Positions 26,272-40,211 of a stretch of DNA of 64,000 nt are shown here, piece by piece. This stretch comes from Burkholderiales bacterium (GTDB lineage Bacteria > Pseudomonadota > Gammaproteobacteria > Burkholderiales > JACQAP01): NCBI GenBank assembly GCA_035548375.1, contig DASZTG010000022.1:14232-78231 (forward strand), read 5' to 3'. The translations under genes were made by a program, and so were the position numbers. Numbering within the stretch: position 1 is the stretch's first letter; each line of letters starts with the position of its first letter. Under the pieces are notes generated by a model. That model ran no database searches. It saw only the letters and a program-made list of their open reading frames with translations, and was not told the DNA's origin.

Positions 26272-27429
26272 TCAGGCCTCGTCTGGTTCGGGATCGTCTG
26301 CCGAGGTCGCGCCGTTTCCGCGCACGTCGGCCGGCGCCTGCGCGGCGATCCGGGGCGTGGAAGTGCGCACATCGGCGTTCTGCGCGCGATGGCGCAGCGC
26401 GTGGTCCATCAGCACCAGCGCCAGCATGGCTTCCGCGATCGGCGTCGCGCGAATGCCCACGCAGGGATCGTGGCGCCCGGTGGTTTCGACGACGGTGGGC
26501 TTGCCGTCCTTGTCGATCGAGCGGCGCGGCAAGCGGATGCTCGAAGTCGGCTTGACGGCGATGTTGACGACGATGTCCTGCCCCGTCGAAATGCCGCCGA
26601 GGATGCCGCCGGCGTTGTTGGACAAAAATCCCTGCGGCGTCATTTCGTCGCCGTGCTCCGTGCCTTTCTGGCCGACGGACGCGAAGCCGGCGCCGATCTC
26701 GACGCCCTTGACCGCGTTGATGCCCATCATGGCATAGGCGATATCGGCATCGAGCTTGTCGTAGACCGGTTCGCCCCATCCCACCGGTACGCCTGTGGCA
26801 ACCGCGGTAATGCGCGCACCGCAGGAATCGCCGGACTTGCGCAACTTGTCCATGAACTCTTCGAGCTGCGGCACGATGGCGGGATCGGGCGAGAAAAACG
26901 GATTCTGGTCCACCGAGTCCCAGGCCTTGAAGGTGATCGGCATCGGGCCGAGTTGCGACATGTAGCCGCGAATCTCGACGCCATGGCGTTCGCGCAGCCA
27001 TTTGCGCGCGATCGCTGCCGCGGCCACGCGCACCGCCGTTTCCCTCGCGGACTGGCGCCCTCCTCCCCGGTAATCGCGCACGCCGTATTTCTGCCAGTAC
27101 GTGTAGTCGGCGTGGCCGGGCCGGAAAGTTTCGGCGATCTTGCCGTAGTCTTTGCTGCGCTGGTCCTCGTTGCGAATCAGCAGCGCGATCGGCGTGCCCG
27201 TCGTGACGCCTTCGAACACGCCCGAGAGAATTTCCACGGTATCGGATTCGCGCCGCTGCGTTACGTGACGGGAGGTGCCCGGCTTGCGGCGGTCCAGATC
27301 CTTCTGGATGTCGGCTTGCGAAAGCGCCATCCCGGGCGGGCAGCCGTCGACGACGCAGCCGATGGCGGGTCCATGGCTCTCGCCGAAGGACGTGACGCAG
27401 AACAGCTTGCCGAGGGTGTTGCCGGACAT
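26272..27429 (-). CDS. aroC: Chorismate synthase
   Basis: Start set at [31 protein letters not shown] (AroC N-terminus). Conserved [10 protein letters not shown] and GRHDPCVG motifs. Roughly 25-aa Ala/Asp-rich C-terminal tail. The track ORF extends a further 233 codons upstream, antisense to thyA. Confidence 0.96.
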
Positions 27430-27492
27430 GATCGTCGAGCCGGGAAAGTAGGCGAGTTTATCATCCGGCGCCGCTGCATTAAACTTGGCGCC

Positions 27493-28287
27493 ATGCAACA
27501 GTACCTCGACCTCATGCGGCACATCCTCGAGAAGGGGGCCCGCAAGGGTGACCGCACCGGCACCGGCACCCTGAGCGTCTTCGGGCCGCAATTGCGCTTC
27601 GACCTGCAGGCCGGCTTCCCGCTGCTCACCACCAAGAAGGTCCACCTCAAGTCCATCATCCACGAGCTGCTGTGGTTCCTGAAGGGCGAGACCAACGTCC
27701 GCTACCTCAAGGAAAACGGCGTCTCGATCTGGGACGAGTGGGCGGACGAAAACGGCGAGCTCGGTCCCGTCTACGGCTACCAGTGGCGCTCCTGGCCCGC
27801 GCCGGACGGCCGGCACATCGACCAGGTCACGCGCGTCATCGACGACATCCGCAAGACGCCGAACTCGCGGCGACTCATCGTCTCCGCCTGGAATGTGGCC
27901 GACCTCGACAAGATGGCGCTGATGCCCTGCCACGCGTTCTTCCAGTTCTACGTGGCCGATGGAAAGCTTTCCTGCCAGCTCTACCAGCGCAGCGCCGACC
28001 TGTTCCTCGGCGTGCCGTTCAACATCGCTTCGTATGCGCTGCTCACCATGATGGTGGCCCAGGTCTGCGGCCTGAAGCCTGGCGAATTCATCCACGCGCT
28101 GGGCGACACGCATCTCTACCTCAACCACCTCGACCAGGCGCGCGAGCAGCTTGCGCGGCAGCCGCGCGCGCTACCGGTGATGGAAATCAATCCCGCCGTG
28201 AAGGACATCTTCGGATTCAGGTACGAGGACTTCACGCTCGAGGCCTACGACCCGCATCCCGCGATCAAGGCGCCCGTAGCGGTATGA
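27493..28287 (+). CDS. thyA: Thymidylate synthase
   Basis: 264 aa from [22 protein letters not shown]. Catalytic motif ([13 protein letters not shown]). The track ORF is extended far upstream, antisense to aroC. Confidence 0.97.
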
Positions 28288-28778
28288 CGCCGCGGGTGTC
28301 GATCATCGTCGCGATGGCGAGCAACCGCGTCATCGGCGCGAACAACGCCCTGCCCTGGCACCTGCCGGCCGACTTGAATCGCTTCAAGTCGCTGACGATG
28401 GGTCACCACATCATCATGGGCCGCAAGACCTTCGAATCCATCGGCCGCGTGCTGCCGGGGAGGGCGAGCGTGGTCGTCACCCGGAATCCTGCATGGAAAG
28501 TCGATGGCGCCATCACTGCAAGCAGCTTGCGCGATGCCATCGCAAAGGCGAAGGGGGACGATGAAATCTTCGTGATCGGCGGCGAGCAGATTTTCCGCGA
28601 GGCGCTGCCGCTTGCGGACCGGATCTATCTCACGCAAATCGAGCGGGACTTTGCCGGCGACGTTCATTTTCCGCCGCTCGCGCAGGAGACCTGGTCGCAG
28701 AAATCGAGCGAAAGCGGAAGCGATGAAGCAAGCGGCCTGCGCTACAGCTACAAAACGCTGGAGCGCGTCCGCCAGTAA
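28284..28778 (+). CDS. folA: Dihydrofolate reductase
   Basis: 164 aa from [52 protein letters not shown] overlap with the thyA stop. Confidence 0.93.
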
Positions 28779-28788
28779 ACAGGAATCT

Positions 28789-30990
28789 TCAGTGCCACCG
28801 GTTTCTCCACGCGGCGATCCGATGGGTAGCCACGTCGAACGATTCCGGCGCCAGCCCCGATAGATGGCGTCGCCAGATTTCCTCATAAGCCGCTTCGATT
28901 TCCCGTACGCGTCCTTCCGTGTCGAAGAGCGCGGACGCGAGCGGATCCGTGAGTTTTGCGCGGCGAATACGCTGGAGCGCTTCCGGATTGCGCCCCCATT
29001 CGATCGCCCGCCTGGCATAGGCATCGAGCGAATCCACGATGCCTTCCGGAAAATCGGCGGCCGCGAGTAGGCTGGCCGCCACACGCGATGCGAAACTGCT
29101 TCCCGGCACGGTCAGCAGCGGCAACCCCGCGGATAGTGCATCACAAGCCGTGGTCATCGCGTTGAAGATCGGGGTATCCAGGAACAAATCGGCCAGGCGG
29201 AAGCGTGCGCGATAGCGCTCGCGAGGCTCGAGGGGTGCGAAAATCAGGCGCTCTTCGGCAATGCCACGCTGCGACGCCTCCCTGCGCAAATTGTCCACCG
29301 CCTGCGCATTGCGACCTGCGAGCCAGAGCACGCTGGAGGGTACGGCTCTCAGGATATCCATCCATGCCCCGAAAATTCGCGGTTCGATCTTGTAGTAGTT
29401 GTTGAATGAACAGTAGACGAACGCATTTTCGGGAAGCGCGTAGTCCTCGCGCGAAACCCGGACCGCCGCGAGCGGCTCGAATTTGTCGTAGATGAAAAAC
29501 GTCCGCGGCAGGTAGACGAGTGCCTCCGACCAGGCGGCGCGCTGCTCCGGCGGGCTCGCGGTTCGATCCACGATGCGCCAGGGAACGGCGTCCATTCCCT
29601 GCGATCCCGGGAACGCCAGATAGCCGACCTGGACCGGTGCCGGCCGGCGCGCCGACACGCCAGGGCGCGCGTAAGTCGTATAACCCCCGGCATCGACGAG
29701 GATGTCGATGTCGTCGTTGCGCAGCAGCGAGGCGATGCCGTCGTCGTCCAGCGAGAAGGCCTCCACAAACCTGTCGGCGGCGGCTTCGACGCGCTTGCGG
29801 ATCGCGCTGGCGTCCGCCGGTCCGGTGGAATAGCAGAACACCTCGAATCTCGAGCGGTCGTGCAGCGCGATCAGCGGTCGCAGCAGGTAGGCATTCAGGT
29901 GCTCGCGAAAATCCGGCGACAGGTAGCCGATCCGCAATTTCTTTCGGCTTGTCGATCGCGACGACCTCGCTTCTTGCGCAGCGGCCGCCGTGATTTCCAG
30001 GCGTTGTGCGATCCCGCGCGCGATGGCAAGGCGCAGCCCGTCTTGCAGCGGCAGGGTGAGGGCGTTGTAGGCGACGGCGGGATCCGCGATTCCCTTGTTC
30101 GACGACAACCGTTGCAGCACGATCTCACTGAATCTCGCGATCAAAGCGTCCCGCTGCGACCAGTCGCAATCGTGCAAGCGTTCGTAAGAGGATGACAGGA
30201 AAATCAGTTCCGGATCGAAACGCTCCGGATCATCCGACTTGCGCGGATCGAACGCGTTGGAAAAATCCAGTATCGCCTGCGGATTGCGCGCGCGCACCTC
30301 GTCGAATTCCGCGCGCGCCTCGTCCAGGCGCTCCAGGCTGGCCAGCGCGAGCCCGCGGGCGATTTTCGCGCTGGCATGCATTGGAGCAAGGAGCAAGGTT
30401 GCGTCGCATTCCGCCAGTGATTCGGCCGGGCGCCGCATGGCCAGCAACACCTCCGCAACGTTGAAGCGCGCGTCCGCGTTCTGCGGCTGTTGCGCGGCGA
30501 AAATGCGATTGTTTTCCAGGGCATCTTGCAGGCGCCCGAGCCGGGTCAGGACGTAACCGCGGTTCATGCGCGCCGATGCCGGCGCGTTCCCAAGCGCCAG
30601 CGCCTCGTCGTAGGCATCGAGCGCGCCTGGGTAGTCGCTTGCTTGCTCGCGTATCGCGCCGAGATTGGACCAAAGTTGCGCATTGGCCGGGAGTCGATCC
30701 AGGGCGGCGACCAGCAGCGATTGGCCCTCTGGAACTCGATTGTTGCGGGCGAGAACCGCTACCGTTGCACTGACGGCTTGCACGTTGCAGGGATCGAGCT
30801 CCAACGCACGCTGGAGGACCACGAGCGACGCCTCGTCACGGCCAAGGCGCTCCAGCAGCGCGCCGAGCAGGAAGTGCACACGAGCGTTGTCCGGGTTTTC
30901 CTCGCAAAGTTTCCGGAGCATCGATTCACCCTCCGGACTGCCGCGGACGACCACTTGTGCCGCATCCGCGAGCAGCTTCTCGGAGATCAC
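28789..30990 (-). CDS. TPR-repeat glycosyltransferase, GT41 (SPINDLY/O-GlcNAc-transferase-like) family
   Basis: 733-aa ORF (GTG start overlapping the upstream stop as GTGA). The N-terminal ~250 aa are TPR repeats. The C-terminal half resembles GT41 catalytic lobes (…CSFNNYYKI.P..F..WM.IL..VP.SVLWL…, …LADLFLDT..FNAMTTA.DAL.AGLPLLT..G..FASRVAASLL). Confidence 0.82.
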   Translation of the reverse strand: MISEKLLADAAQVVVRGSPEGESMLRKLCEENPDNARVHFLLGALLERLGRDEASLVVLQRALELDPCNVQAVSATVAVLARNNRVPEGQSLLVAALDRLPANAQLWSNLGAIREQASDYPGALDAYDEALALGNAPASARMNRGYVLTRLGRLQDALENNRIFAAQQPQNADARFNVAEVLLAMRRPAESLAECDATLLLAPMHASAKIARGLALASLERLDEARAEFDEVRARNPQAILDFSNAFDPRKSDDPERFDPELIFLSSSYERLHDCDWSQRDALIARFSEIVLQRLSSNKGIADPAVAYNALTLPLQDGLRLAIARGIAQRLEITAAAAQEARSSRSTSRKKLRIGYLSPDFREHLNAYLLRPLIALHDRSRFEVFCYSTGPADASAIRKRVEAAADRFVEAFSLDDDGIASLLRNDDIDILVDAGGYTTYARPGVSARRPAPVQVGYLAFPGSQGMDAVPWRIVDRTASPPEQRAAWSEALVYLPRTFFIYDKFEPLAAVRVSREDYALPENAFVYCSFNNYYKIEPRIFGAWMDILRAVPSSVLWLAGRNAQAVDNLRREASQRGIAEERLIFAPLEPRERYRARFRLADLFLDTPIFNAMTTACDALSAGLPLLTVPGSSFASRVAASLLAAADFPEGIVDSLDAYARRAIEWGRNPEALQRIRRAKLTDPLASALFDTEGRVREIEAAYEEIWRRHLSGLAPESFDVATHRIAAWRNRWH

Positions 30991-32342
30991 GCGACCTCGG
31001 AGACGAAATCTTCGAACTTGTCCCCGGGTTCGGCCGGAAATTCATCGAGGAAGACGAAGCGAATCTCGAATCCGGGCCCGAAGTGACGGCCGAAGTGCCG
31101 CCGCAGCGCGGAGGTCTCGCCGTCGGAAAATGCCCGCGCCGCAACCATCCTCACCTCGATCTCCCGCAGCGATTTCTGGATGACTTTGAACCGGCGCACC
31201 GGCGCGGCGTTCATCATGACTTCGGTTCCCAGCGTGGGCCAGCGCATCGACCCGTCGGGAAGCCGCAACATGTTGCGGCGGCGCCCGAGTATGCGTCGCA
31301 GCACGGGCAGGCCACGTCCGCAGCGGCAAGCCGGCCCAACCTCGGCGTAGTCGCCGATGTCGTAGCGAATCAGCGGCATCGCGAAATTGTGCAGCGGGGT
31401 CACCAGCACGCGCCCGATTTCGCCGGCACCGCAGGGCGCGCCGTCTTCGCCGACGACTTCGAGCAGCACGCTCTCGGACTGCACGTGATATTCGCCGCTT
31501 TCCGGGCATTGCAATGCCACGTAGCCGGTTTCGCGCGCGGTGTAGACGTCCGACAGCGGGATTTGCCATTGCGTGCGAATGTAGTCGCGCATGTGCGCCG
31601 GGACGGCTTCGCCAAAGCTGCGCGCCTCCCGCAGCCAGGGCATGGTCACCCCTCGGCGCTGTGCCGCCTGCAATACGCCCAGCAGATTCGTCGCGTACCC
31701 GAGCAGGTAGGCGGGTCGCTCTTCCAGGATGCAATCCAGTTGCCGATCGAAGGTCCACTTCACCGGCAGCACTACGCACGGACCGGTTCGCAGCAATCCT
31801 TTGCCCGCATCGCCGAGCCAGTGTTCCTGTACCGCGCGGGAGTCGCCCCCTACGCGCATGGCGACCATCTTTTCGGAGAATTCCCGGCGATGCCACAGAT
31901 GCTCTCGCAGCATGAACGCGTGCCAATAGAACTGCGAGACCGGCGTCGCAAGGAAACGCACGGGCTCGCCGGTGGACCCCGAGGTCGCATTCTCCGAAGG
32001 GCTGCCGTGGCCCTCAGGCAGCCTCGTGGTAGTGAGCGTGGAGAAATGGTCCTGCAATTGCGCGCGCGAAAGCGTTGGCAACTCTGCGAAATCCGACAGA
32101 GAGAACGATGCGTCGTCGTCGGTAAATTTTCGGGGGAACCGTCCGCGGTAGAACGGCACATGCGCAGCCGCGTGCCGGAGAAGCCCCGCGAGTTGGCGGC
32201 GCTGGAGCGTCCACAATTCGGCAGGGGACAGCCACTGGCTGCGCTCCAGCTGGAACAGCACCGACAGCATCGCGCCGCCGGCCTGGTCCGGTACGGCGGG
32301 CCAGGTCAGCCCGTCGACGGAGGATCGCAGCGCTTCGAGCAC
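30987..32342 (-). CDS. Adenylate-forming enzyme, PaaK / coenzyme-F390-synthetase-like family
   Basis: 451-aa ORF (GTG start, 4 nt after the upstream stop). Phosphate-binding loop ATSGSTGEPVRF, Y.TRETG motif, C-terminal lobe ending with a conserved Lys region (EPGDKFEDFVSE). Size and motifs fit the PaaK/CapK/F390-synthetase clade rather than long acyl-CoA ligases. Confidence 0.78.
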   Translation of the reverse strand: MLEALRSSVDGLTWPAVPDQAGGAMLSVLFQLERSQWLSPAELWTLQRRQLAGLLRHAAAHVPFYRGRFPRKFTDDDASFSLSDFAELPTLSRAQLQDHFSTLTTTRLPEGHGSPSENATSGSTGEPVRFLATPVSQFYWHAFMLREHLWHRREFSEKMVAMRVGGDSRAVQEHWLGDAGKGLLRTGPCVVLPVKWTFDRQLDCILEERPAYLLGYATNLLGVLQAAQRRGVTMPWLREARSFGEAVPAHMRDYIRTQWQIPLSDVYTARETGYVALQCPESGEYHVQSESVLLEVVGEDGAPCGAGEIGRVLVTPLHNFAMPLIRYDIGDYAEVGPACRCGRGLPVLRRILGRRRNMLRLPDGSMRWPTLGTEVMMNAAPVRRFKVIQKSLREIEVRMVAARAFSDGETSALRRHFGRHFGPGFEIRFVFLDEFPAEPGDKFEDFVSEVA

Positions 32343-32346
32343 GCCG

Positions 32347-34353
32347 CTAGTGCGCCTGCGTCGGCACCAGGCTGGTTTGCTTCAGTGCCGCGGCACCGAC
32401 AAAAGTATCCGACGACACTGCCAGGTCGTTGACGTTGTATACGACCCCGGCCCTTGCGGCATTGGTGCCCGCAAAGTAGCCCTGCAGGTTCACGAAACCG
32501 CTGGTCGTGTTGCCGGTTGCAAAGAACGTCCCGCCGCACATGCCGCCACTAAACGTGGCGGAGACCGATTGGCTTGCCAGCGTCCAGTTCGCCGATCCAT
32601 TGATATTGGCGTTTTGCGCGCCAAGGAAGTTCACGCTCATGGCCATGGAATTCAACGTACCCGCCACTGCGCCGGTACTGGTGCTCGTCGGCTGCGTGGC
32701 GCCCAGCAGCGTATAGGTGCCGGTCGTTCCACCCAGCGCAGTCATGTTCGCATCGGAAGTCGGAATTCCTGCGACATAGTGCAACGTTCCTCCCGAGCAG
32801 CATTCGCCGCCGGTAGCGCTCGACGCCCTTCCCCACGCGATGATGCCGTCGTTGCCGGAGGTCGCCACCGGTCCGGATACGCTGACGGCTCCGACGCCAT
32901 CACTGAATTGCGTAAGCAGGCCGGAGCTGAAGGAAGTTCCCGTAAACGTGACGACCTGACTGGTTATTTCGGCGTTCGCGATGCCTACGTTCCAGAGCGG
33001 CGCAACGGAAGACTGCGTAAGCGCCGCCGCGCCGGCGAAACTATCCTGCGAAGCGATCGAAGAATCGAATACGTTGTAGACGACACCCGCCCGCGCGGCG
33101 TTGGCGCCAGCAAAAAATCCGGTCAGGCTGACCGAGCCGGAAAAGCTCGTCGGTCCGCTCGCAAAGAAGGCGGCGCCGTCCGTACCGCCCGAGAACGTCG
33201 CGGACAACGCCTGATTGAGCAGGGTCCAGCTCATCGTTCCCTTGACGTTCGCGTTGCTGCCGCCTAGAAAATCCGCGATCATCGTCATGCTGTTAAGCGT
33301 GCCGGCGACCGCGCCAGTGTTGACGCTCGTCGGATTGGTCGCGCCAAGCAGGGTGTAAGTCGCCTGCATGCCGCCAAGGGCCGTGAAATCCGTCGTCGGA
33401 ATGCCCGCCACGTAGTGGAGGACCTGATCGGCGTTGAAGATGCAGCATTCGCCGCCGGTTGCGCCGGACGCCGTGCCCCACGCAATGACGCCGTCGTTGC
33501 CCACACTCACGGGATTTCGCAGCGTGACCGCGCCGACGTTGTCATCGAAATCGGTCATGCGTCCCAGTGCGTCGAGATTCGCGCGCGTGGAGTCATATAC
33601 GTTGGCCCCACTGGCACCGGCAATACCGACGTGTGCCGGCTTCACCGTTCCGGTGAGTATGGACCCGCAGCCGACGATGTCGCAGTTGTAGCCGCTGGAA
33701 TTCACCGCCTCGCCCTGCTTGAACTGGGGCGGTGGCGATTCCGGCGGCGGCGGCGGCAAGTCGGTGCGCTTGTTCGTGATCACCGGCTTCACTTCCTGAC
33801 CCTGCACGTAGTAGGACTCGCCGTTCATGACGCTCAGGCAGCCGCCGCCGTTGCAGACGTTGATCTCGCCCTCGCCGACGGTCCCGGTCACGGAATGGCC
33901 GTACTCGATCGTGTATTCCGTGCCGCGAATGCCGATGGTAGCCACGGAAGTGGTGACCTGATAGTTGCCCTTGTTCGTCCGCCCCACCAATCCGGTGATC
34001 GTGCGCAGCCCGCCCTTCAGCAGGCTGAAGAACCCCTTTTCGCTGCCGTCCTGCTTGCCTTCGTAACGGTATTGGTCGATGCGGAACTGCGACTCGGGCT
34101 GCAGCGACACATACGCGCCGTCGGTGAAGCGCAATTGCGCGCGGCCGCCGTTCGTGTTGATCGTGTCGCCCTGCTCGATCGGCGCGCCCTTGCCGATCGG
34201 CCGGCTTTGGCCGCCCGCGCCAGTGGCGGTGACGTTTCCGATCGCGAAATCGACGCGCGCGGCTGGCGCGGAGTATCCGACGACCGGATAGGCTGCTGCA
34301 ATCGCCGCGAGCAGCGCCGCGCGACAGTTCAGACTGAAATGTTCCTGGGGCAT
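32347..34353 (-). CDS. Secreted FecR-domain protein with two tandem ~180-aa C-terminal modules
   Basis: 668-aa ORF. Sec-type signal (no lipobox Cys after the h-region). FecR-like domain (aa ~35-150: …G.PI..GDTI.T..G.RAQLRF.DGA.V.L.P.S.F.I…). Poly-Pro linker (DLPPPPPESPPPQ). Two homologous modules (aa ~270-450 and ~484-661), each with a GGECC motif and ending in G(F/Y)FAG.NAARAGVVYNV. Confidence 0.8.
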   Translation of the reverse strand: MPQEHFSLNCRAALLAAIAAAYPVVGYSAPAARVDFAIGNVTATGAGGQSRPIGKGAPIEQGDTINTNGGRAQLRFTDGAYVSLQPESQFRIDQYRYEGKQDGSEKGFFSLLKGGLRTITGLVGRTNKGNYQVTTSVATIGIRGTEYTIEYGHSVTGTVGEGEINVCNGGGCLSVMNGESYYVQGQEVKPVITNKRTDLPPPPPESPPPQFKQGEAVNSSGYNCDIVGCGSILTGTVKPAHVGIAGASGANVYDSTRANLDALGRMTDFDDNVGAVTLRNPVSVGNDGVIAWGTASGATGGECCIFNADQVLHYVAGIPTTDFTALGGMQATYTLLGATNPTSVNTGAVAGTLNSMTMIADFLGGSNANVKGTMSWTLLNQALSATFSGGTDGAAFFASGPTSFSGSVSLTGFFAGANAARAGVVYNVFDSSIASQDSFAGAAALTQSSVAPLWNVGIANAEITSQVVTFTGTSFSSGLLTQFSDGVGAVSVSGPVATSGNDGIIAWGRASSATGGECCSGGTLHYVAGIPTSDANMTALGGTTGTYTLLGATQPTSTSTGAVAGTLNSMAMSVNFLGAQNANINGSANWTLASQSVSATFSGGMCGGTFFATGNTTSGFVNLQGYFAGTNAARAGVVYNVNDLAVSSDTFVGAAALKQTSLVPTQAH

Positions 34354-34487: not shown

Positions 34488-35834
34488 TCAGATATCGTAG
34501 TGCAGCAATATCTGGTAGATGACCCTGTCGTATTCGTAGATCGATATGTTCGACGGATTGTTGGTCCAGTTGACCTGGGGCGTGATCCTCAGGTTCTTTT
34601 TCGGGACGAAGATCATGCCGGCCGCGGCATTGTATTGCGTGTCCTCGCGATCCTCGGCGAAGAGCGGGTCCGGGCCGCCGTACTTGCGCTTCTCGACGCT
34701 GCCGTTGGCGAAAAGCGCGTATTTCTCGACCACGTTCCATTGTGCACCCAGGCGCGCCCCATAGAAGTTATTGCCGAATTGCGGCACTCCGGCGTGGGTT
34801 TCGACTTCCGAGCCGCCGTATGCCCCAACGTAGGTGACCAGCGTGCCTCGTCCGAATGCGTGCGCATAGCCCGCGCCACCCACGTAGCGGTTGGCATTGC
34901 GGATTTCCTGTCCCGGGTATTCCAGAAAGCTGTACTGCCCGAAGATGCTCACCTGGTTGCGCGAATCGAAATCATGCTGCCATTGTGCGGTCACGCCGGA
35001 CGCATTCCGGTAGGCATCGGGGTAAAGCGCTGTGTTGTCGACGAAGAAGGAATTGAATTGCCCGCCGAAGGTCCACGTATCGCGATCCCTCCGATAGGCC
35101 AATCCCAGGTTGACGTCATAGTAATAGGTCGAGAAATCGGATTGTTCGTAGTTGGTCTTGTTCTGGTACGCCAGGCCGCCGAACAGGCTCAAGCTCTTGG
35201 AGAATGGATGCGTAAAGCTGACACCGCCGCCGAACATGACGAACGCGTCTTTTTGCTGTTGCGACGCGGGAGCGAGCGCGAAGGGAAGTCCGCCGAAGGC
35301 CGGCACCGCGATCTGCGAATCCGACGTAGCGCTGTTCACGTTGGTGTCGTAGCCGATGCCTATTTCTACGAAGCCGTGAATGGTCGTTCGCGAAGCTTCG
35401 TCTATGCGGTTGATGGCATCCAGGAAACGGTCGATGGTTACCGAAACCTCGGGCGGGACCTCCGATTTCTTGACGTTCTCGAATTCCCGTTTCGACGTTT
35501 CGATTTCCTTGAGGTTGAAGTAAGCGCGCGCGATTTTTTCGCGCGCCGGCGCGGCATTAGGCTTCACGGCGAGCACGCGTTCGAGAGCGAACACGGCTTC
35601 CGTGTACTTGCCAAGGTCGAGGGCCGCGGATCCCAGCAGGAAATCGAAATCGGGATCGCCCGCGCGAGTCGATTGCAGCGGAATGAGCAGGTTGTAGGCG
35701 GCTTGCGCGTTGCCGCTATCGAGAAGCTGCTTGGCTTGCAGGACGATGTCATCGGCCGCAGACGCGGCCAACGGGAAAACCAGCGCACAAATTAGCGATG
35801 CTGCGATCCGGCGCAGAAGCCGCATGAGATTCAT
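34488..35834 (-). CDS. Outer-membrane protein: N-terminal TPR domain plus C-terminal beta-barrel (Slam/DUF560-like)
   Basis: 448-aa ORF. Signal peptide (…FPLAASAADD). About 130 aa of TPR-like helices. The remaining ~290 aa show alternating aromatic/hydrophobic beta-strand patterning rich in G/Y/N/F (GIGYDTNVNSA, LAYRRDRDTW, YVGGAGYAHAF…). This architecture matches surface-lipoprotein assembly modulator (DUF560) proteins as I recall them. Family assignment not verified. Confidence 0.72.
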   Translation of the reverse strand: MNLMRLLRRIAASLICALVFPLAASAADDIVLQAKQLLDSGNAQAAYNLLIPLQSTRAGDPDFDFLLGSAALDLGKYTEAVFALERVLAVKPNAAPAREKIARAYFNLKEIETSKREFENVKKSEVPPEVSVTIDRFLDAINRIDEASRTTIHGFVEIGIGYDTNVNSATSDSQIAVPAFGGLPFALAPASQQQKDAFVMFGGGVSFTHPFSKSLSLFGGLAYQNKTNYEQSDFSTYYYDVNLGLAYRRDRDTWTFGGQFNSFFVDNTALYPDAYRNASGVTAQWQHDFDSRNQVSIFGQYSFLEYPGQEIRNANRYVGGAGYAHAFGRGTLVTYVGAYGGSEVETHAGVPQFGNNFYGARLGAQWNVVEKYALFANGSVEKRKYGGPDPLFAEDREDTQYNAAAGMIFVPKKNLRITPQVNWTNNPSNISIYEYDRVIYQILLHYDI

Positions 35835-36096: not shown

Positions 36097-38352
36097 CTAG
36101 CCTTGGCGCACGCAATCCACGTAGTAGCGCAACTCACCTCCGGACGCTTCCTCGACGAGACCGTGGATGTCGGTATCGAAACCGGGGAATGTCTTGTTGA
36201 ATTCGCGTGCGAACTGCAGGTAGCGCACGATCGTCTGGTTGAAGCGCTCCCCGGGAACGAGCAACGGTATGCCGGGCGGATAGGGCGTCAACAGAACGCT
36301 GGTGACGCGACCTTCCAGCTTGTCGATATCGACGCGGTCGATTTCACGGTGCGCCATGGCGGCAAACGCGTCCGAGGGCTTCATCGACGGCTGCATGTCC
36401 GACAGGTACATCTCGGTGGTCAGGCGCGCGATGTCGTTGGCCTTGTACATGCCGTGGATCTGGTTGCACAGGTCGCGCAAGCCCATGCGCTCATAGCGCG
36501 GATGCGCCTGGCAGAACTCAGGCAGGATGCGCCACATCGGCTGGTTCTTGTCGTAATCGTCCTTGAACTGCTGTAGCGCCGTCAGCAGAGTGTTCCAGCG
36601 GCCCTTGGTGATGCCGATCGTGAACATGATGAAGAACGAATACAGGCCGGTCTTCTCGACAATGACGCCGTGCTCGGCCAGGTATTTGGTCACGATCGAC
36701 GCCGGAATGCCGGTCTTGGCGAACTTGCCCGACACATCCAGTCCCGGCGTGATCACCGTTGACTTGATCGGATCCAGCATGTTGAAGCCGGGCGCGAGGT
36801 TGCCGAAGCCGTGCCATTTCTCGTTGGCCTTGAGCACCCATTCGTCGCGCGAGCCGATGCCTTCGGCCGCGATCTTCTCCGGCCCCCAGACCTTGAACCA
36901 CCAGTCCTTGCCGAACTCGTCGTCGACCTTGCGCATGGCACGACGGAAGTCCAGCGCCTCCGCGATGGATTCCTCCACCAGCGCCGTGCCGCCCGGCGGC
37001 TCCATCATCGCCGCCGCCACGTCGCAGGACGCGATGATCGCGTACTGCGGCGAGGTCGAGGTGTGCATGAGGTAGGCCTCGTTGAACACGTGGCGGTCGA
37101 GCTTGCGCGTCTGCGACTCCTGCACCAGGATCTGCGAGGCCTGCGAAATACCCGCCAGCAGCTTGTGCGTCGAGTGCGTCGCGTAAATGATCGCGTCCTT
37201 CGGCCGCGGCCTGTCCTTGCCGATCGCATGCATGTCCTTGTAGAACTCGTGGAACGTGGCATGCGGCAGCCACGCCTCGTCGAAATGCAGCGTCTCGATC
37301 GATGAGTTGAGCGTTTCCTTCAACGTCTCGACGTTGTAAACCACGCCGTCGTAGGTGCTCTGCGTGATCGTCAGGATGCGCGGCTTCTTGCGCTTGGCGT
37401 TGCGCGCGAACGGATTCGCCTCGATCTTCTTCTGGATGTTCTCCGGCTTGAATTCCTCCAGGGGAATCGGGCCGATGATGCCCAGGTGGTTGCGCGTCGG
37501 CGTCAGGAAGACGGGGATGGCGCCGGTCATCGTGATCGCGTGCAGGATGGACTTGTGGCAGTTGCGATCGACGACGACGATGTCGTCGGGCGCGACGTTG
37601 GCATGCCAGACCATCTTGTTCGAAGTCGACGTGCCGTTCGTGACGAAGAAACAGTGGTCGGCATTGAAGATTCGCGCCGCATTACGCTCCGACGCCGCGA
37701 CCGGGCCGGTGTGGTCCAGCAACTGGCCGAGCTCGTCCACCGCGTTGCAAACGTCGGCGCGCAGCATGTTTTCGCCGAAGAACTGGTGGAACATCTGGCC
37801 GACCGGGCTTTTCAGGAAGGCCACGCCGCCGGAATGCCCCGGACAGTGCCAGGAGTACGAACCATCCTGCGCATAGTGCGTCAGCGCGCGGAAGAACGGC
37901 GGCGCCAGGCTGTCGAGGTAGGAGCGCGCCTCGCGGATGATGTGCCGGGCGACGAATTCCGGCGTGTCCTCGAACATGTGGATGAACCCGTGCAGCTCGC
38001 GCAGGATATCGTTCGGGATGTGGCGTGAGGTGCGCGTCTCGCCGTACAGGTAGATGGGGATGTCGGCGTTGCGGAAACGCAGCTCCTTCACGAAGGCGCG
38101 TACCTTTTCCAGCGCCTTGTTGGTCTCCTCCTCCGATCCGGCGCCGAATTCCTCGTCGTCGATCGACAGGATGAATGCCGACGCCCGGCTTTGCTGCTGC
38201 GCGAACGACGTCAGGTCGCCGTAGCTGGTGACGCCGACCACTTCCATGCCTTCGTCCTCCAGCGCCTTGGCAAGCGCGCGGATGCCCAGGCCGCTGGTGT
38301 TCTCCGAGCGGTAGTCCTCGTCGATGATGACGACGGGAAAGCGGAATTTCAT
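36097..38352 (-). CDS. Orn/Lys/Arg decarboxylase, large fold-type I PLP family (AdiA/LdcC/SpeC-like)
   Basis: 751-aa ORF. N-terminal wing/response-regulator-like domain (MKFRFPVVIIDED…), PLP-lysine motif (ATHSTHKLL), conserved C-terminal domain. Substrate not assignable from sequence alone. Confidence 0.92.
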   Translation of the reverse strand: MKFRFPVVIIDEDYRSENTSGLGIRALAKALEDEGMEVVGVTSYGDLTSFAQQQSRASAFILSIDDEEFGAGSEEETNKALEKVRAFVKELRFRNADIPIYLYGETRTSRHIPNDILRELHGFIHMFEDTPEFVARHIIREARSYLDSLAPPFFRALTHYAQDGSYSWHCPGHSGGVAFLKSPVGQMFHQFFGENMLRADVCNAVDELGQLLDHTGPVAASERNAARIFNADHCFFVTNGTSTSNKMVWHANVAPDDIVVVDRNCHKSILHAITMTGAIPVFLTPTRNHLGIIGPIPLEEFKPENIQKKIEANPFARNAKRKKPRILTITQSTYDGVVYNVETLKETLNSSIETLHFDEAWLPHATFHEFYKDMHAIGKDRPRPKDAIIYATHSTHKLLAGISQASQILVQESQTRKLDRHVFNEAYLMHTSTSPQYAIIASCDVAAAMMEPPGGTALVEESIAEALDFRRAMRKVDDEFGKDWWFKVWGPEKIAAEGIGSRDEWVLKANEKWHGFGNLAPGFNMLDPIKSTVITPGLDVSGKFAKTGIPASIVTKYLAEHGVIVEKTGLYSFFIMFTIGITKGRWNTLLTALQQFKDDYDKNQPMWRILPEFCQAHPRYERMGLRDLCNQIHGMYKANDIARLTTEMYLSDMQPSMKPSDAFAAMAHREIDRVDIDKLEGRVTSVLLTPYPPGIPLLVPGERFNQTIVRYLQFAREFNKTFPGFDTDIHGLVEEASGGELRYYVDCVRQG

Positions 38353-38425
38353 ACGGTCCTCCAGGAACGGACTGCCGCCGGCGGACGCCGGCGAGGTGGG
38401 CTGCTTGCGGGGGGTGGCTTGGCCA

Positions 38426-38998
38426 CTAGATCTTGGGAAGCGTGACGCCCTGCTGACCCTGGTACTTGCCGCCGCGATCGCGGTAGGAGGTCTCGCAGAC
38501 GTCGTCGGAGTCGGACTCGAAGAAAATCACCTGCGCGACGCCTTCGTTCGCGTAGATTTTCGCGGGCAGCGGCGTCGTGTTGGAAAACTCCAGCGTCACG
38601 TAGCCTTCCCATTCCGGCTCGAACGGCGTGACGTTGACGATGATGCCGCAGCGAGCATAGGTCGATTTGCCGAGGCAGACCGTCAACACGTTGCGCGGAA
38701 TGCGAAAGTATTCGACCGTGCGTGCCAGCGCAAAGGAATTCGGCGGGATGATGCATACGTCGCCGTTGAAATCGACGAAGGACTTTTCGTCGAAGTTCTT
38801 CGGATCCACCATCGTCGAATTGATGTTCGTGAAGATCTTGAAGTCCTTGGAGCAGCGGATGTCGTAGCCATAGCTCGATGTCCCGTAGGACACGATCTTG
38901 TGGCCGTTGACGCTTCTGACCTGACCGGGCTCGAACGGTTCGATCATCCTGTGCTCGGCCGCCATGCGGCGGATCCACTTGTCGGATTTGATGCTCAT
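38426..38998 (-). CDS. dcd: dCTP deaminase
   Basis: 190 aa from [13 protein letters not shown]…MIEPF (Dcd N-terminus). The upstream 93 codons of the track ORF run through an intergenic tandem repeat and terminator. Confidence 0.95.
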
Positions 38999-39006
38999 GC
39001 TTTCGC

Positions 39007-39036
39007 GTGAAGAGTGAAGGGTGAAGGGTGAAGGGT
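39007..39036. repeat. Heptamer tandem repeat (GTGAAGG-like, 4 copies) immediately upstream of dcd
   Basis: gtgaaga gtgaagg gtgaagg gtgaagg gt on the plus strand (CCTTCAC x4 in the dcd sense), ending 9 nt before the dcd ATG. A second short tandem (cctcccg x2) lies at 39091-39104. Confidence 0.8.
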
Positions 39037-39063
39037 AAAAACCGGCAGGCACGGGCGTGCCGG
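39037..39063 (-). terminator. Intrinsic terminator after apbC
   Basis: Minus strand CCGGCACGCCCGTGCCTGCCGG followed by TTTTTA. GC-rich stem(s) (CCGGCA/TGCCGG, GGCAC/GTGCC). Confidence 0.55.
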
Positions 39064-39122
39064 GGCGCTTTGCGTGGTGAACGCCTCGAGCCTCCCGCCT
39101 CCCGCCTGACCCATCGCTCGCC

Positions 39123-40211
39123 TCACGTGTTCTGAACCACGATCTTCGGGAAAGCCGTGCTGTGGTCGCGGGCCAGGTCGGCAATGCGTGCGGCCACCTT
39201 GCGCGCGATCTCCCGATAAATCTGCGCGGACCGGCTTTCGGGTTCCGCGACGACGGTCGGCTTCCCGGAATCCGCACTCTCGCGGATCTTGATGTCCAGC
39301 GGCAGGCTGCCGAGCACCTCGACCTTGTAGTCCGCGCTCATGCGCGAAGCGCCGCCTTCGCCAAAGATGTGCTCCTCGTGCCCGCAGTTCGAACAGACGT
39401 GCACGCTCATGTTTTCGACGATGCCGAGGATGGGCACGCCGACCTTCTCGAACATCTTGAGGCCCTTGCGCGCGTCGATCAGCGCGATGTCCTGGGGCGT
39501 GGTGACGATAACGGCGCCGGTGAGCGGAACCTTTTGCGAGAGCGTCAGCTGGATGTCGCCGGTGCCGGGCGGCAGGTCGACGACCAGATAATCGAGGTCA
39601 TTCCATTTCGTATCGCGCAACAGCTGCTCCAGAGCCTGGGTGACCATCGGCCCGCGCCAGACCATGGGCGTATCGACGTCGATCAGCACGCCAATCGACA
39701 TGGCCTGCACGCCGTGGTTGACCATCGGCTCGATGGCCTTGCCGTCCGGCGACATCGGCTTGCCGGTCAAGCCCATCATCACCTGCTGCGAAGGGCCGTA
39801 GATGTCGGCATCCAGGATGCCGACCTTGGCCCCTTCGGCGGCGAGCGCCAGCGCCAGGTTCACCGCGGTGGTCGATTTGCCGACGCCGCCCTTGCCGGAG
39901 GCCACGGCGATGACGTTTCGCACGCCGCCCAGCAGCTTGAGCCCGCGCTGGACGGCGTGGGCGACGATCTTGAACTCGACATTCACATCGACCTTGCCGA
40001 CGCCCGGGATGCGGCCGATGCGCTCCGCCAGCTCGTGGCGAATGCCTTCGAGCACGCTTTTCGCGGGGTAGCCGAGCACTATGTCGAGCGCGACGTCATT
40101 GCCGTCGATGCGGATGTTCCGGGCTTCCTTGCCGGCGACATAGTCCTTTCCGGTGACCGGATCGGTGAACGTCTGGAGGGCTGCCTTGACCTGCTCTTCG
40201 CTGATCGCCAT
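39123..40211 (-). CDS. apbC: Fe-S cluster carrier ATPase ApbC/Mrp (NBP35 family)
   Basis: 362-aa ORF. N-terminal DUF59-like domain, deviant Walker A ([10 protein letters not shown]), CxxC motif (VCSNCGHE). Confidence 0.95.

Follow-up and report, generated by a model that had tools for sequence, protein, structure and literature searches.

A FecR-headed protein with two tandem TbpB-type lobes as the likely cargo of an adjacent Slam-type translocon in a Burkholderiales bacterium

To our knowledge, type 11 (Slam) secretion has been verified for only a handful of cargo, from animal-associated bacteria, and the cargo of environmental DUF560 proteins is largely unknown. We wondered about a locus in a 64,000-nucleotide stretch of a Burkholderiales bacterium (GenBank assembly GCA_035548375.1, contig DASZTG010000022.1, positions 14,232 to 78,231; hereafter "the window"), where a gene for a 668-residue protein with two tandem modules of ~180 residues lies downstream of a gene for a Slam-type outer-membrane protein. 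Specifically, we asked whether these modules are barrels of the kind found in Slam substrates, and whether the protein is the cargo of its neighbor, as had been proposed from the letters alone (the original prediction). Our analysis indicates that the 668-residue protein is likely a cargo of the type 11 secretion system (T11SS) with TbpB-type lobes, and most likely a soluble, non-lipidated one that carries a FecR-like effector head and uses the adjacent Slam-type translocon. The features on which this reading is built are the following.

32347..34353, minus strand: candidate cargo gene, a single open reading frame of 668 residues with signal peptide, FecR domain, Pro-rich linker, lobe 1, linker and lobe 2.
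34270..34353, minus strand: predicted Sec signal peptide, residues 1 to ~28, read from the sequence; the AlphaFold 2 (AF2) model has a helix at residues 9-21.
33865..34167, minus strand: FecR-type beta domain, putative N-terminal effector, residues 63-163 (PF04773, E 2.7e-11, 44.2 bits against a cut-off of 24).
33664..33771, minus strand: Pro-rich linker, predicted to be disordered, residues ~195-230, with PPPPPESPPP (predicted local distance difference test score, pLDDT, <50 over residues 195-228).
32998..33651, minus strand: lobe 1, residues 235-452 (hidden Markov model, HMM, module 260-455), predicted handle sheet plus eight-stranded barrel, AF2 pLDDT ~95.
33070..33120, minus strand: lobe 1 copy of G[FY]FAG.NAARAGVVYNV, GFFAGANAARAGVVYNV, residues 412-428, predicted penultimate barrel strands, equivalent to TbpB GGFYGPKAEELGG.
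32911..32991, minus strand: inter-lobe linker, residues 455-481, low model confidence, modelled as disordered.
32353..32934, minus strand: lobe 2, C-terminal, putative Slam-targeting domain; HMM module 474-667, structural lobe 482-664 (AF2, Foldseek).
32377..32481, minus strand: lobe 2 copy of the same motif, GYFAGTNAARAGVVYNV (residues 625-641), through FVGAAALKQ, predicted last two barrel strands, ending nine residues before the C-terminus.
34488..35834, minus strand: gene of the Slam-type (T11SS) outer-membrane protein, 448 residues, with signal peptide, tetratricopeptide repeats (TPR) and SlipAM/DUF560 barrel.

The two modules are copies of each other. Segments 33004-33546 and 32371-32904 align colinearly with 64% identity and 76% positives over 182 columns (BLASTP, E 2e-71), in agreement with the tandem, colinear arrangement first proposed, and the two repeats retain ~68% identity over 442 nt at the DNA level. 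Since the DNA identity is only ~68%, the duplication appears to be old and maintained rather than a recent repeat, and the protein and DNA identities together rule out chance or an assembly repeat as its source. In a neighbor-joining tree, module 1 of the window protein clusters with its counterparts in the two-lobed relatives P0005 (75% identity) and P0121, which indicates that the duplication predates those lineages. Shared between the copies are GNDG[VI]IAWG (residues 285-293 and 500-508), GGECC (residues 300-304 and 515-519), G[FY]FAG.NAARAGVVYNV, and a strand of the form F[AV]GAAAL[TK]Q (FAGAAALTQ at 439-447, FVGAAALKQ at 651-659). GGECC and G[FY]FAG.NAARAGVVYNV occur in both modules at the places given for them in the original prediction. 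The modules themselves extend beyond the limits first given, both as HMM envelopes (260-455 and 474-667) and as structural lobes (235-452 and 482-664).

What fold do these copies adopt? An AlphaFold model of module 2 alone (residues 470-668, 122-row alignment) reached a pLDDT of 92.2 and a predicted TM score (pTM) of 0.87, and shows a five-stranded N-terminal sheet followed by eight strands. When compared with the PDB by Foldseek, ranks 1 to 38 consisted solely of the NHBA C-domain, the TbpB C-lobe, full TbpB, fHbp, HpuA and the hemophilins HphA/Hpl, most of them verified Slam/T11SS cargo; the best match was the NHBA C-domain (6cuj, E 5.4e-6, TM 0.76, root-mean-square deviation 4.0 Å). An unrelated fold had been named as the outcome that would speak against the barrel proposal, and the comparison returned only Slam-type barrels: no beta-helix or Ig fold is found among the PDB matches of module 2 to rank 38, and on these results we rejected the beta-helix, Ig-repeat and integral outer-membrane-protein readings of the modules. 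The last of these deserves a closer look, as eight strands would also suit membrane-embedded barrels of the OmpX/PagP type serving as outer-membrane anchors for the FecR domain, and earlier annotation of Slam-adjacent proteins often gave "PagP-like barrel" (PMC5449769). However, the barrels that Foldseek returns are the soluble ones of TbpB, fHbp, NHBA and hemophilin rather than OmpX or PagP, the protein tails are of the type ...GAAAFKKQ with no terminal aromatic residue, and tandem copies on short linkers are atypical of integral outer-membrane proteins, all of which makes membrane anchoring by the modules improbable in the extreme.

The full-length model points in the same direction as that of module 2. 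Its mean pLDDT is 78.9, with ~90 over residues 30-110, ~95 over lobe 1 (235-452) and ~85 over lobe 2 (482-664), and its top 15 Foldseek matches are full-length two-lobed TbpB structures (E down to 3.7e-9, >500 aligned columns), although the model does not reproduce how the two lobes are oriented to each other (TM ~0.2). The lobe 1 region of this model matches both TbpB lobes. At the sequence level, a profile of 37 diverse modules (A4), searched against the PDB sequences, matched TbpB with E 2.4e-4 (both lobes), LbpB with E 6.6e-3 and the TbpB C-lobe with E 0.012. In the alignment, the family motif GfFaGanAeraG (GFFAGxNAxRAG) is placed opposite GGFYGPKAEELGG / GGFYGKNAIEMGG, and VFGA pairs with the final ..GA strand. 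Profile matches with the motifs in register, together with the predicted fold, suggest that the resemblance of the terminal motif to that of the eight-stranded barrels, noticed at the outset from the spacing of a few residues, reflects real remote homology. By profile and predicted structure, each module is a TbpB-type lobe composed of handle and barrel.

We then focused on the neighbor. The 448-residue protein carries TPR_19 and other TPR matches at residues ~12-123 and a SlipAM domain at 158-437 (Pfam, E 1.9e-9, 37.9 bits against a curated cut-off of 22), which bears out its earlier description as Slam-like, and the cargo gene starts 134 bp downstream of it. Scanning the GTDB species representatives yielded 78 loci with the module, nearly all in metagenome-assembled genomes of Burkholderiales sensu lato (Rhodocyclaceae, Accumulibacter, Propionivibrio, Gallionella, Sulfuricella and Ca. 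Desulfobacillus denitrificans among them). Where enough upstream sequence was available (58 species-representative loci), a Slam homologue stands immediately upstream on the same strand in 54, with a median gap of ~100 bp (tblastn). At three of the four exceptions a Slam homologue lies farther upstream and the FecR domain is matched several times, a pattern suggestive of tandem paralogues that share one Slam gene. Separately, at L037, L047, L055, L068 and L073 we observed several distinct FecR-domain tblastn matches, some with the module, near one Slam homologue; these may be tandem cargo paralogues behind one translocon.

The pairing also holds beyond FecR-headed proteins, and here it meets its strongest independent check. 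A lipoprotein subfamily of ~575-600 residues, with clear lipoboxes, two modules and no FecR domain, follows TPR+SlipAM genes at a distance of 9-16 bp in unrelated surroundings (L092, 8657-11821; L093, 8695-11728), one beside TraK/TraE/TraL and a TraG-like gene and one beside folE. Since these FecR-less members keep the Slam gene, the link appears to be one between Slam and module, whatever the N-terminus. The pair beside conjugative-transfer genes hints at horizontal mobility of the Slam-cargo pair. Whether such modules neighbor DUF560 genes elsewhere had been posed as a check of the original prediction, and the 54 of 58 loci together with the lipoprotein subfamily answer it in the affirmative.

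The position of the module within its proteins is equally regular. An exhaustive HMM search of 1.84 billion representatives recovered 701 clusters (50% identity) at E<=1e-3, so the family comprises at least 701 clusters; a first word-indexed homologue search with one module as query had returned 4 proteins only, and profile and exhaustive searches were then used. Among 262 sequences, 210 carry one module, 37 two, 12 three and 3 four, so tandem multiplication is recurrent and not peculiar to the window gene. The common architecture is a signal peptide, a FecR domain, a linker and one module, in ~420-470 residues, and in 251 of 251 proteins the last module ends no more than 17 residues from the C-terminus. 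Across the family, the TbpB-type lobe is fused either to a FecR-type head, in soluble forms, or to a lipobox, as in classical surface lipoproteins. One further protein, P0094, is a lipoprotein with the module only, on a contig too short to judge Slam linkage. P0052 and P0089, considered as short FecR-less members, proved to be pieces of ordinary FecR-module genes broken by frameshifts.

Several observations weigh against this reading. No Pfam TbpB_B_D or fHbp C-domain match was obtained for six modules (hmmscan, Pfam, E<=10), single-sequence phmmer against the PDB gave no barrel match, with only a weak match in the FecR region (1pg6, E 0.045), and a profile of six module sequences against the PDB gave no barrel match either, so that the homology rests on one borderline profile match plus predicted structure. 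Likewise, NCBIfam returned no barrel family for the full-length protein, and weak N-terminal matches only, below cut-off. The C-terminal module outscores every internal one in 28 of 39 multi-module proteins, but the HMM behind this comparison derives mainly from C-terminal copies and so biases it. Conservation of the barrel-closing motif is no weaker in the internal lobe, which excludes the motif as a C-terminal signal by position alone and makes it primarily a fold signature. Export of the 668-residue protein is, moreover, a prediction from sequence and model. Finally, a good part of the Slam linkage is inherited Burkholderiales synteny, and the 54 loci are not 54 independent events.

Taken to its end, this last point would make Slam adjacency a matter of inherited gene order and the modules soluble beta-barrel repeats of a generic kind, whose role has nothing to do with Slam. 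Most loci do share one neighborhood, in which the Slam operon occupies a conserved site flanked by decarboxylase-dcd-apbC-metG and, at its opposite end, by folA-thyA-aroC (window ~26272-28778 and 36097-40211; also L002, L004, L007 and L009). However, the pair persists down to ~30% module identity and in 13 of 15 loci without folA/thyA synteny, it reappears with the lipoproteins, at gaps of 9-16 bp, once on a segment resembling a conjugative element and once in a further unrelated setting, and the predicted fold is specifically that of known Slam cargo. We regard a mere legacy of gene order as very unlikely. For the proposal that the modules are export handles, the barrel fold and the Slam linkage speak in favor, and the equal conservation of the motif in the internal module takes away the part of the argument that was built on the motif itself; either motif or module may nevertheless serve as an export handle.

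If the 668-residue protein is a Slam cargo, its route might be as follows. By inspection, the N-terminus MPQEHFSLNCRAALLAAIAAAYPVVGYSAPAA resembles a Sec type-I signal peptide, with an n-h-c region that is also visible across the module family, and there is no Cys after the hydrophobic core; the absence of a lipobox is in line with what had been noted at the outset. The protein would cross the inner membrane by Sec and lose its signal peptide to signal peptidase I. Each module would then fold into a TbpB-type lobe, in which a soluble eight-stranded barrel comes after a small handle sheet, to give a two-lobed body in which G[FY]FAG.NAARAG...GAAAL[KT]Q would supply the barrel-closing strands, equivalent to TbpB GGFYGPKAEELGG...VFGAK. 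By analogy with TbpB, fHbp, HpuA and hemophilin, we infer that the C-terminal lobe would be recognized by Slam and the chain passed across the outer membrane, folding outside the cell. Lobe 1 and the FecR-type head may form the outer working (binding) end of a protein that is released or surface-associated. Slam/T11SS cargo is defined in published work by a C-terminal eight-stranded barrel with a handle, soluble proteins and proteins with duplicated barrels among them (PMC5449769, PMC12282271, PMC8560813), and the window protein, as predicted, fits this class. In Neisseria, the unfolded substrate is held by Skp, and a C-terminal "specificity motif" of the cargo has been proposed (PMC9090332); hemophilin provides a precedent for a soluble, non-lipidated Slam cargo (PMC8560813).

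The FecR domain invites a different explanation. In the periplasm, the FecR domains of anti-sigma factors work by binding receptor signalling domains, and the window protein might be such a signalling or regulatory component that stays in the periplasm and binds the Slam-like TPR domain or a TonB-dependent transducer. The domain is a genuine Pfam FecR domain (its score exceeds the cut-off), in line with the FecR-type N-terminal domain of the original prediction, and the PF04773 beta domain is shared with the FecR/PupR regulators; moreover, FecR is listed, beside sigma-70 domains, among the families co-occurring with cluster 1 T11SS genes, though there only as a co-occurring family and not as cargo (PMC12282271 supplement). 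Against this, a predicted cleavable signal peptide, ~35 residues after which the FecR domain begins, stands in place of the cytoplasmic anti-sigma domain and transmembrane helix of FecR/PupR, and partner ECF (extracytoplasmic function) sigma factor and transducer are likewise missing: no ECF sigma factor (sigma-70 r2/r4) occurs among the called genes of the annotated neighboring loci, and no TonB-dependent receptor is called in L002, L004, L007 or L009. The operon neighbors of the window gene are Slam, a PaaK-like ligase and a GT41 glycosyltransferase. In addition, TbpB-like lobes are Slam-linked even in members without any FecR. A periplasmic regulator is, in our view, decidedly unlikely, and we return to a secreted protein with a FecR-type head.

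How does this candidate cargo compare with known ones? The closest parallel is TbpB/LbpB of Neisseriaceae and Pasteurellaceae, which are Slam1-dependent surface lipoproteins and likewise consist of two tandem lobes, each with a handle sheet and an eight-stranded barrel. Their barrel-closing strands align in register with those of the window modules (GFFAGxNAxRAG against GGFYGPKAEELGG, GAAAL against VFGA), and their gene, too, is next to, or functionally tied to, a TPR+DUF560 translocon. The window protein departs from TbpB/LbpB in lacking a lipobox and a neighboring TonB-dependent receptor (TbpA/LbpA), in carrying an additional FecR domain at its N-terminus and in coming from a soil host; the sequences are only 11-15% identical, and no match to Pfam TbpB_B_D was obtained. 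Hemophilin/HphA has the non-lipidated state and the Sec signal peptide that are predicted for the window protein, shares the C-terminal eight-stranded barrel and the Slam-adjacent gene (PMC8560813) and is a structural match to module 2 (Foldseek probability 0.97-0.99), but HphA has one barrel with an N-terminal heme clamp where the window protein has two lobes and a FecR domain. The NHBA C-domain is the best single-domain match, and fHbp matches with handle plus barrel, yet both are lipoproteins of a human pathogen, binding heparin or factor H, at ~13-17% identity to the window protein. Predicted multi-TbpBBD T11SS cargo of Sphingomonas and Psychrobacter have two to three handle-barrel pairs and a variable N-terminal "effector" (PMC12282271); unlike the window protein, they have Pro-Thr repeat N-termini and match the TbpBBD model.

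Earlier surveys had described Slam substrates as one or two copies of handle plus eight-stranded barrel, among predicted surface lipoproteins (Hooda et al. 2017; PMC5449769), and about ten cluster 1 cargo architectures, some multi-barrel and none with a FecR head (Grossman et al. 2025; PMC12282271). In the literature searched, we found no paper treating FecR together with DUF560. The modules most likely define a large, so far undescribed T11SS cargo family, of at least 701 clusters that the Pfam and NCBIfam models miss. The secretion logic is known; the novelty lies in the architecture of the cargo, in a barrel subfamily that current models fail to see, in a host range in soil and in the candidate modification partners. 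The locus offers a testable cargo-translocon pair outside pathogens, and the internal and C-terminal barrel copies found in nature should be useful to dissect the undefined Slam recognition signal.

We next consider the adjacent cysteines, which had been thought a possible redox, metal or modification site.

33442..33456, minus strand: GGECC of lobe 1, Cys303-Cys304, predicted handle loop between the GNDGxIAWG and LHYVAG strands.
32797..32811, minus strand: GGECC of lobe 2, Cys518-Cys519, lower-confidence handle loop with local pLDDT ~77.

A functional site central to activity would be consistent with the retention of GGECC in both paralogous modules despite 64% overall identity, and in five related proteins. 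However, the motif is confined to 7 of 255 modules, which are closely related to one another (the two of the window protein and those in P0005, P0006, P0008, P0009 and P0025), and Cys is absent from both modules of the two-lobed relative P0121 and from those of several other relatives. In roughly half of the family a C-x(2-9)-C pair is found elsewhere, in the hairpin before the GFFAG strand (120 of 217 modules), and the Cys-Cys pair itself lies in a variable loop of lower model confidence, where an extracytoplasmic location favors a structural disulfide. The pair thus belongs to a variable handle loop in one small clade and is not among the core features of the family. The redox, metal or modification proposal therefore finds no support, and we judge a central functional role unlikely. 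We infer that the pair is probably a clade-specific loop staple, a vicinal disulfide formed outside the cytoplasm.

Two other short-range cysteine pairs were seen in the same protein, outside the modules (33667-33687 and 33838-33858). VCNGGGC stands at the end of the FecR region and is kept as VCNGxGC in the family consensus, and NCDIVGC lies in the Pro-rich linker.

Downstream of the cargo gene, two further genes follow on the same strand.

30987..32342, minus strand: PaaK-like adenylate-forming enzyme, 451 residues, starting 4 bp past the cargo stop codon.
28789..30990, minus strand: TPR plus GT41 OGT-like glycosyltransferase, 733 residues, no signal peptide, with a 4-bp overlap with the PaaK-like gene.

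The PaaK-like enzyme matches the NCBIfam DVU_1553-family, FlxY and PaaK models, all below cut-off, and the PaaK-like ligase 6siw in the PDB (E 1e-17). Assignment of the glycosyltransferase is more direct (Pfam Glyco_transf_41, E 2.3e-91; human OGT, E 9e-97; XcOGT, 1e-58). Of 45 related loci, 35 have GT41 and 22 have the ligase, in either mutual order, a recurrence that suggests a functional association and that the two enzymes form a cargo-modification module. Both are missing at L007 and in the lipoprotein subfamily, neither locus of which has GT41 nearby, so they appear dispensable for the Slam-module pairing. A layout of this kind is known from HMW1C, a cytoplasmic GT41 enzyme that glycosylates the secreted adhesin HMW1 before export: in both cases a signal-peptide-less GT41 enzyme shares an operon with a secreted protein, here a predicted one, and an outer-membrane translocator. 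The window differs in that its enzyme is of the TPR-bearing OGT type and its translocator belongs to T11SS rather than two-partner secretion. It is tempting to speculate that GT41 and the PaaK-like ligase modify the cargo before export, as HMW1C does HMW1. The fuller proposal, in which the OGT-like GT41, sometimes with the PaaK-like enzyme, modifies the Ser/Thr-rich FecR-lobe protein before Sec export and Slam delivers the glycosylated protein to the cell surface in soil Betaproteobacteria, we hold to be possible but rather doubtful. Through the recurrent OGT-like partner, the old question of what bacterial OGTs modify could be opened to direct test; if true, a glycosylated cargo would be the first dedicated coupling of glycosylation and secretion for T11SS and a natural bacterial OGT substrate.

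The surroundings of the operon gave few regulatory clues. A search for a Fur box in the two intergenic regions gave best sites with 8 and 11 mismatches of 19, no better than background, and so gave no sign of iron regulation; among the genes called in the annotated neighboring loci, none is for iron or heme. A sigma-70 promoter scan returned none, terminator-like matches were at background level, and no Rfam family was found within the 64-kb window. T11SS has been reported to co-occur with dihydrofolate reductase and one-carbon metabolism (PMC12282271), and the conserved position of Slam beside folA/thyA may underlie this published association.

Regarding distribution, hosts of the family are mainly uncultured Burkholderiales from soil, groundwater and wastewater, including Rhodocyclaceae, Gallionella, Sulfuricella and Accumulibacter. 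The exact 668-residue protein is not in a collection of 5.8 billion proteins, and the window's species is not among the GTDB representatives. Of the 31-mers sampled from segment 32347-35834, which spans cargo and Slam genes, 99% and 81% occur in two soil-metagenome runs of one study. At three of the related loci (L006, L089 and L090), Slam, cargo, GT41, folA or thyA are split into several short called genes, which likely reflect assembly frameshifts rather than pseudogenes.

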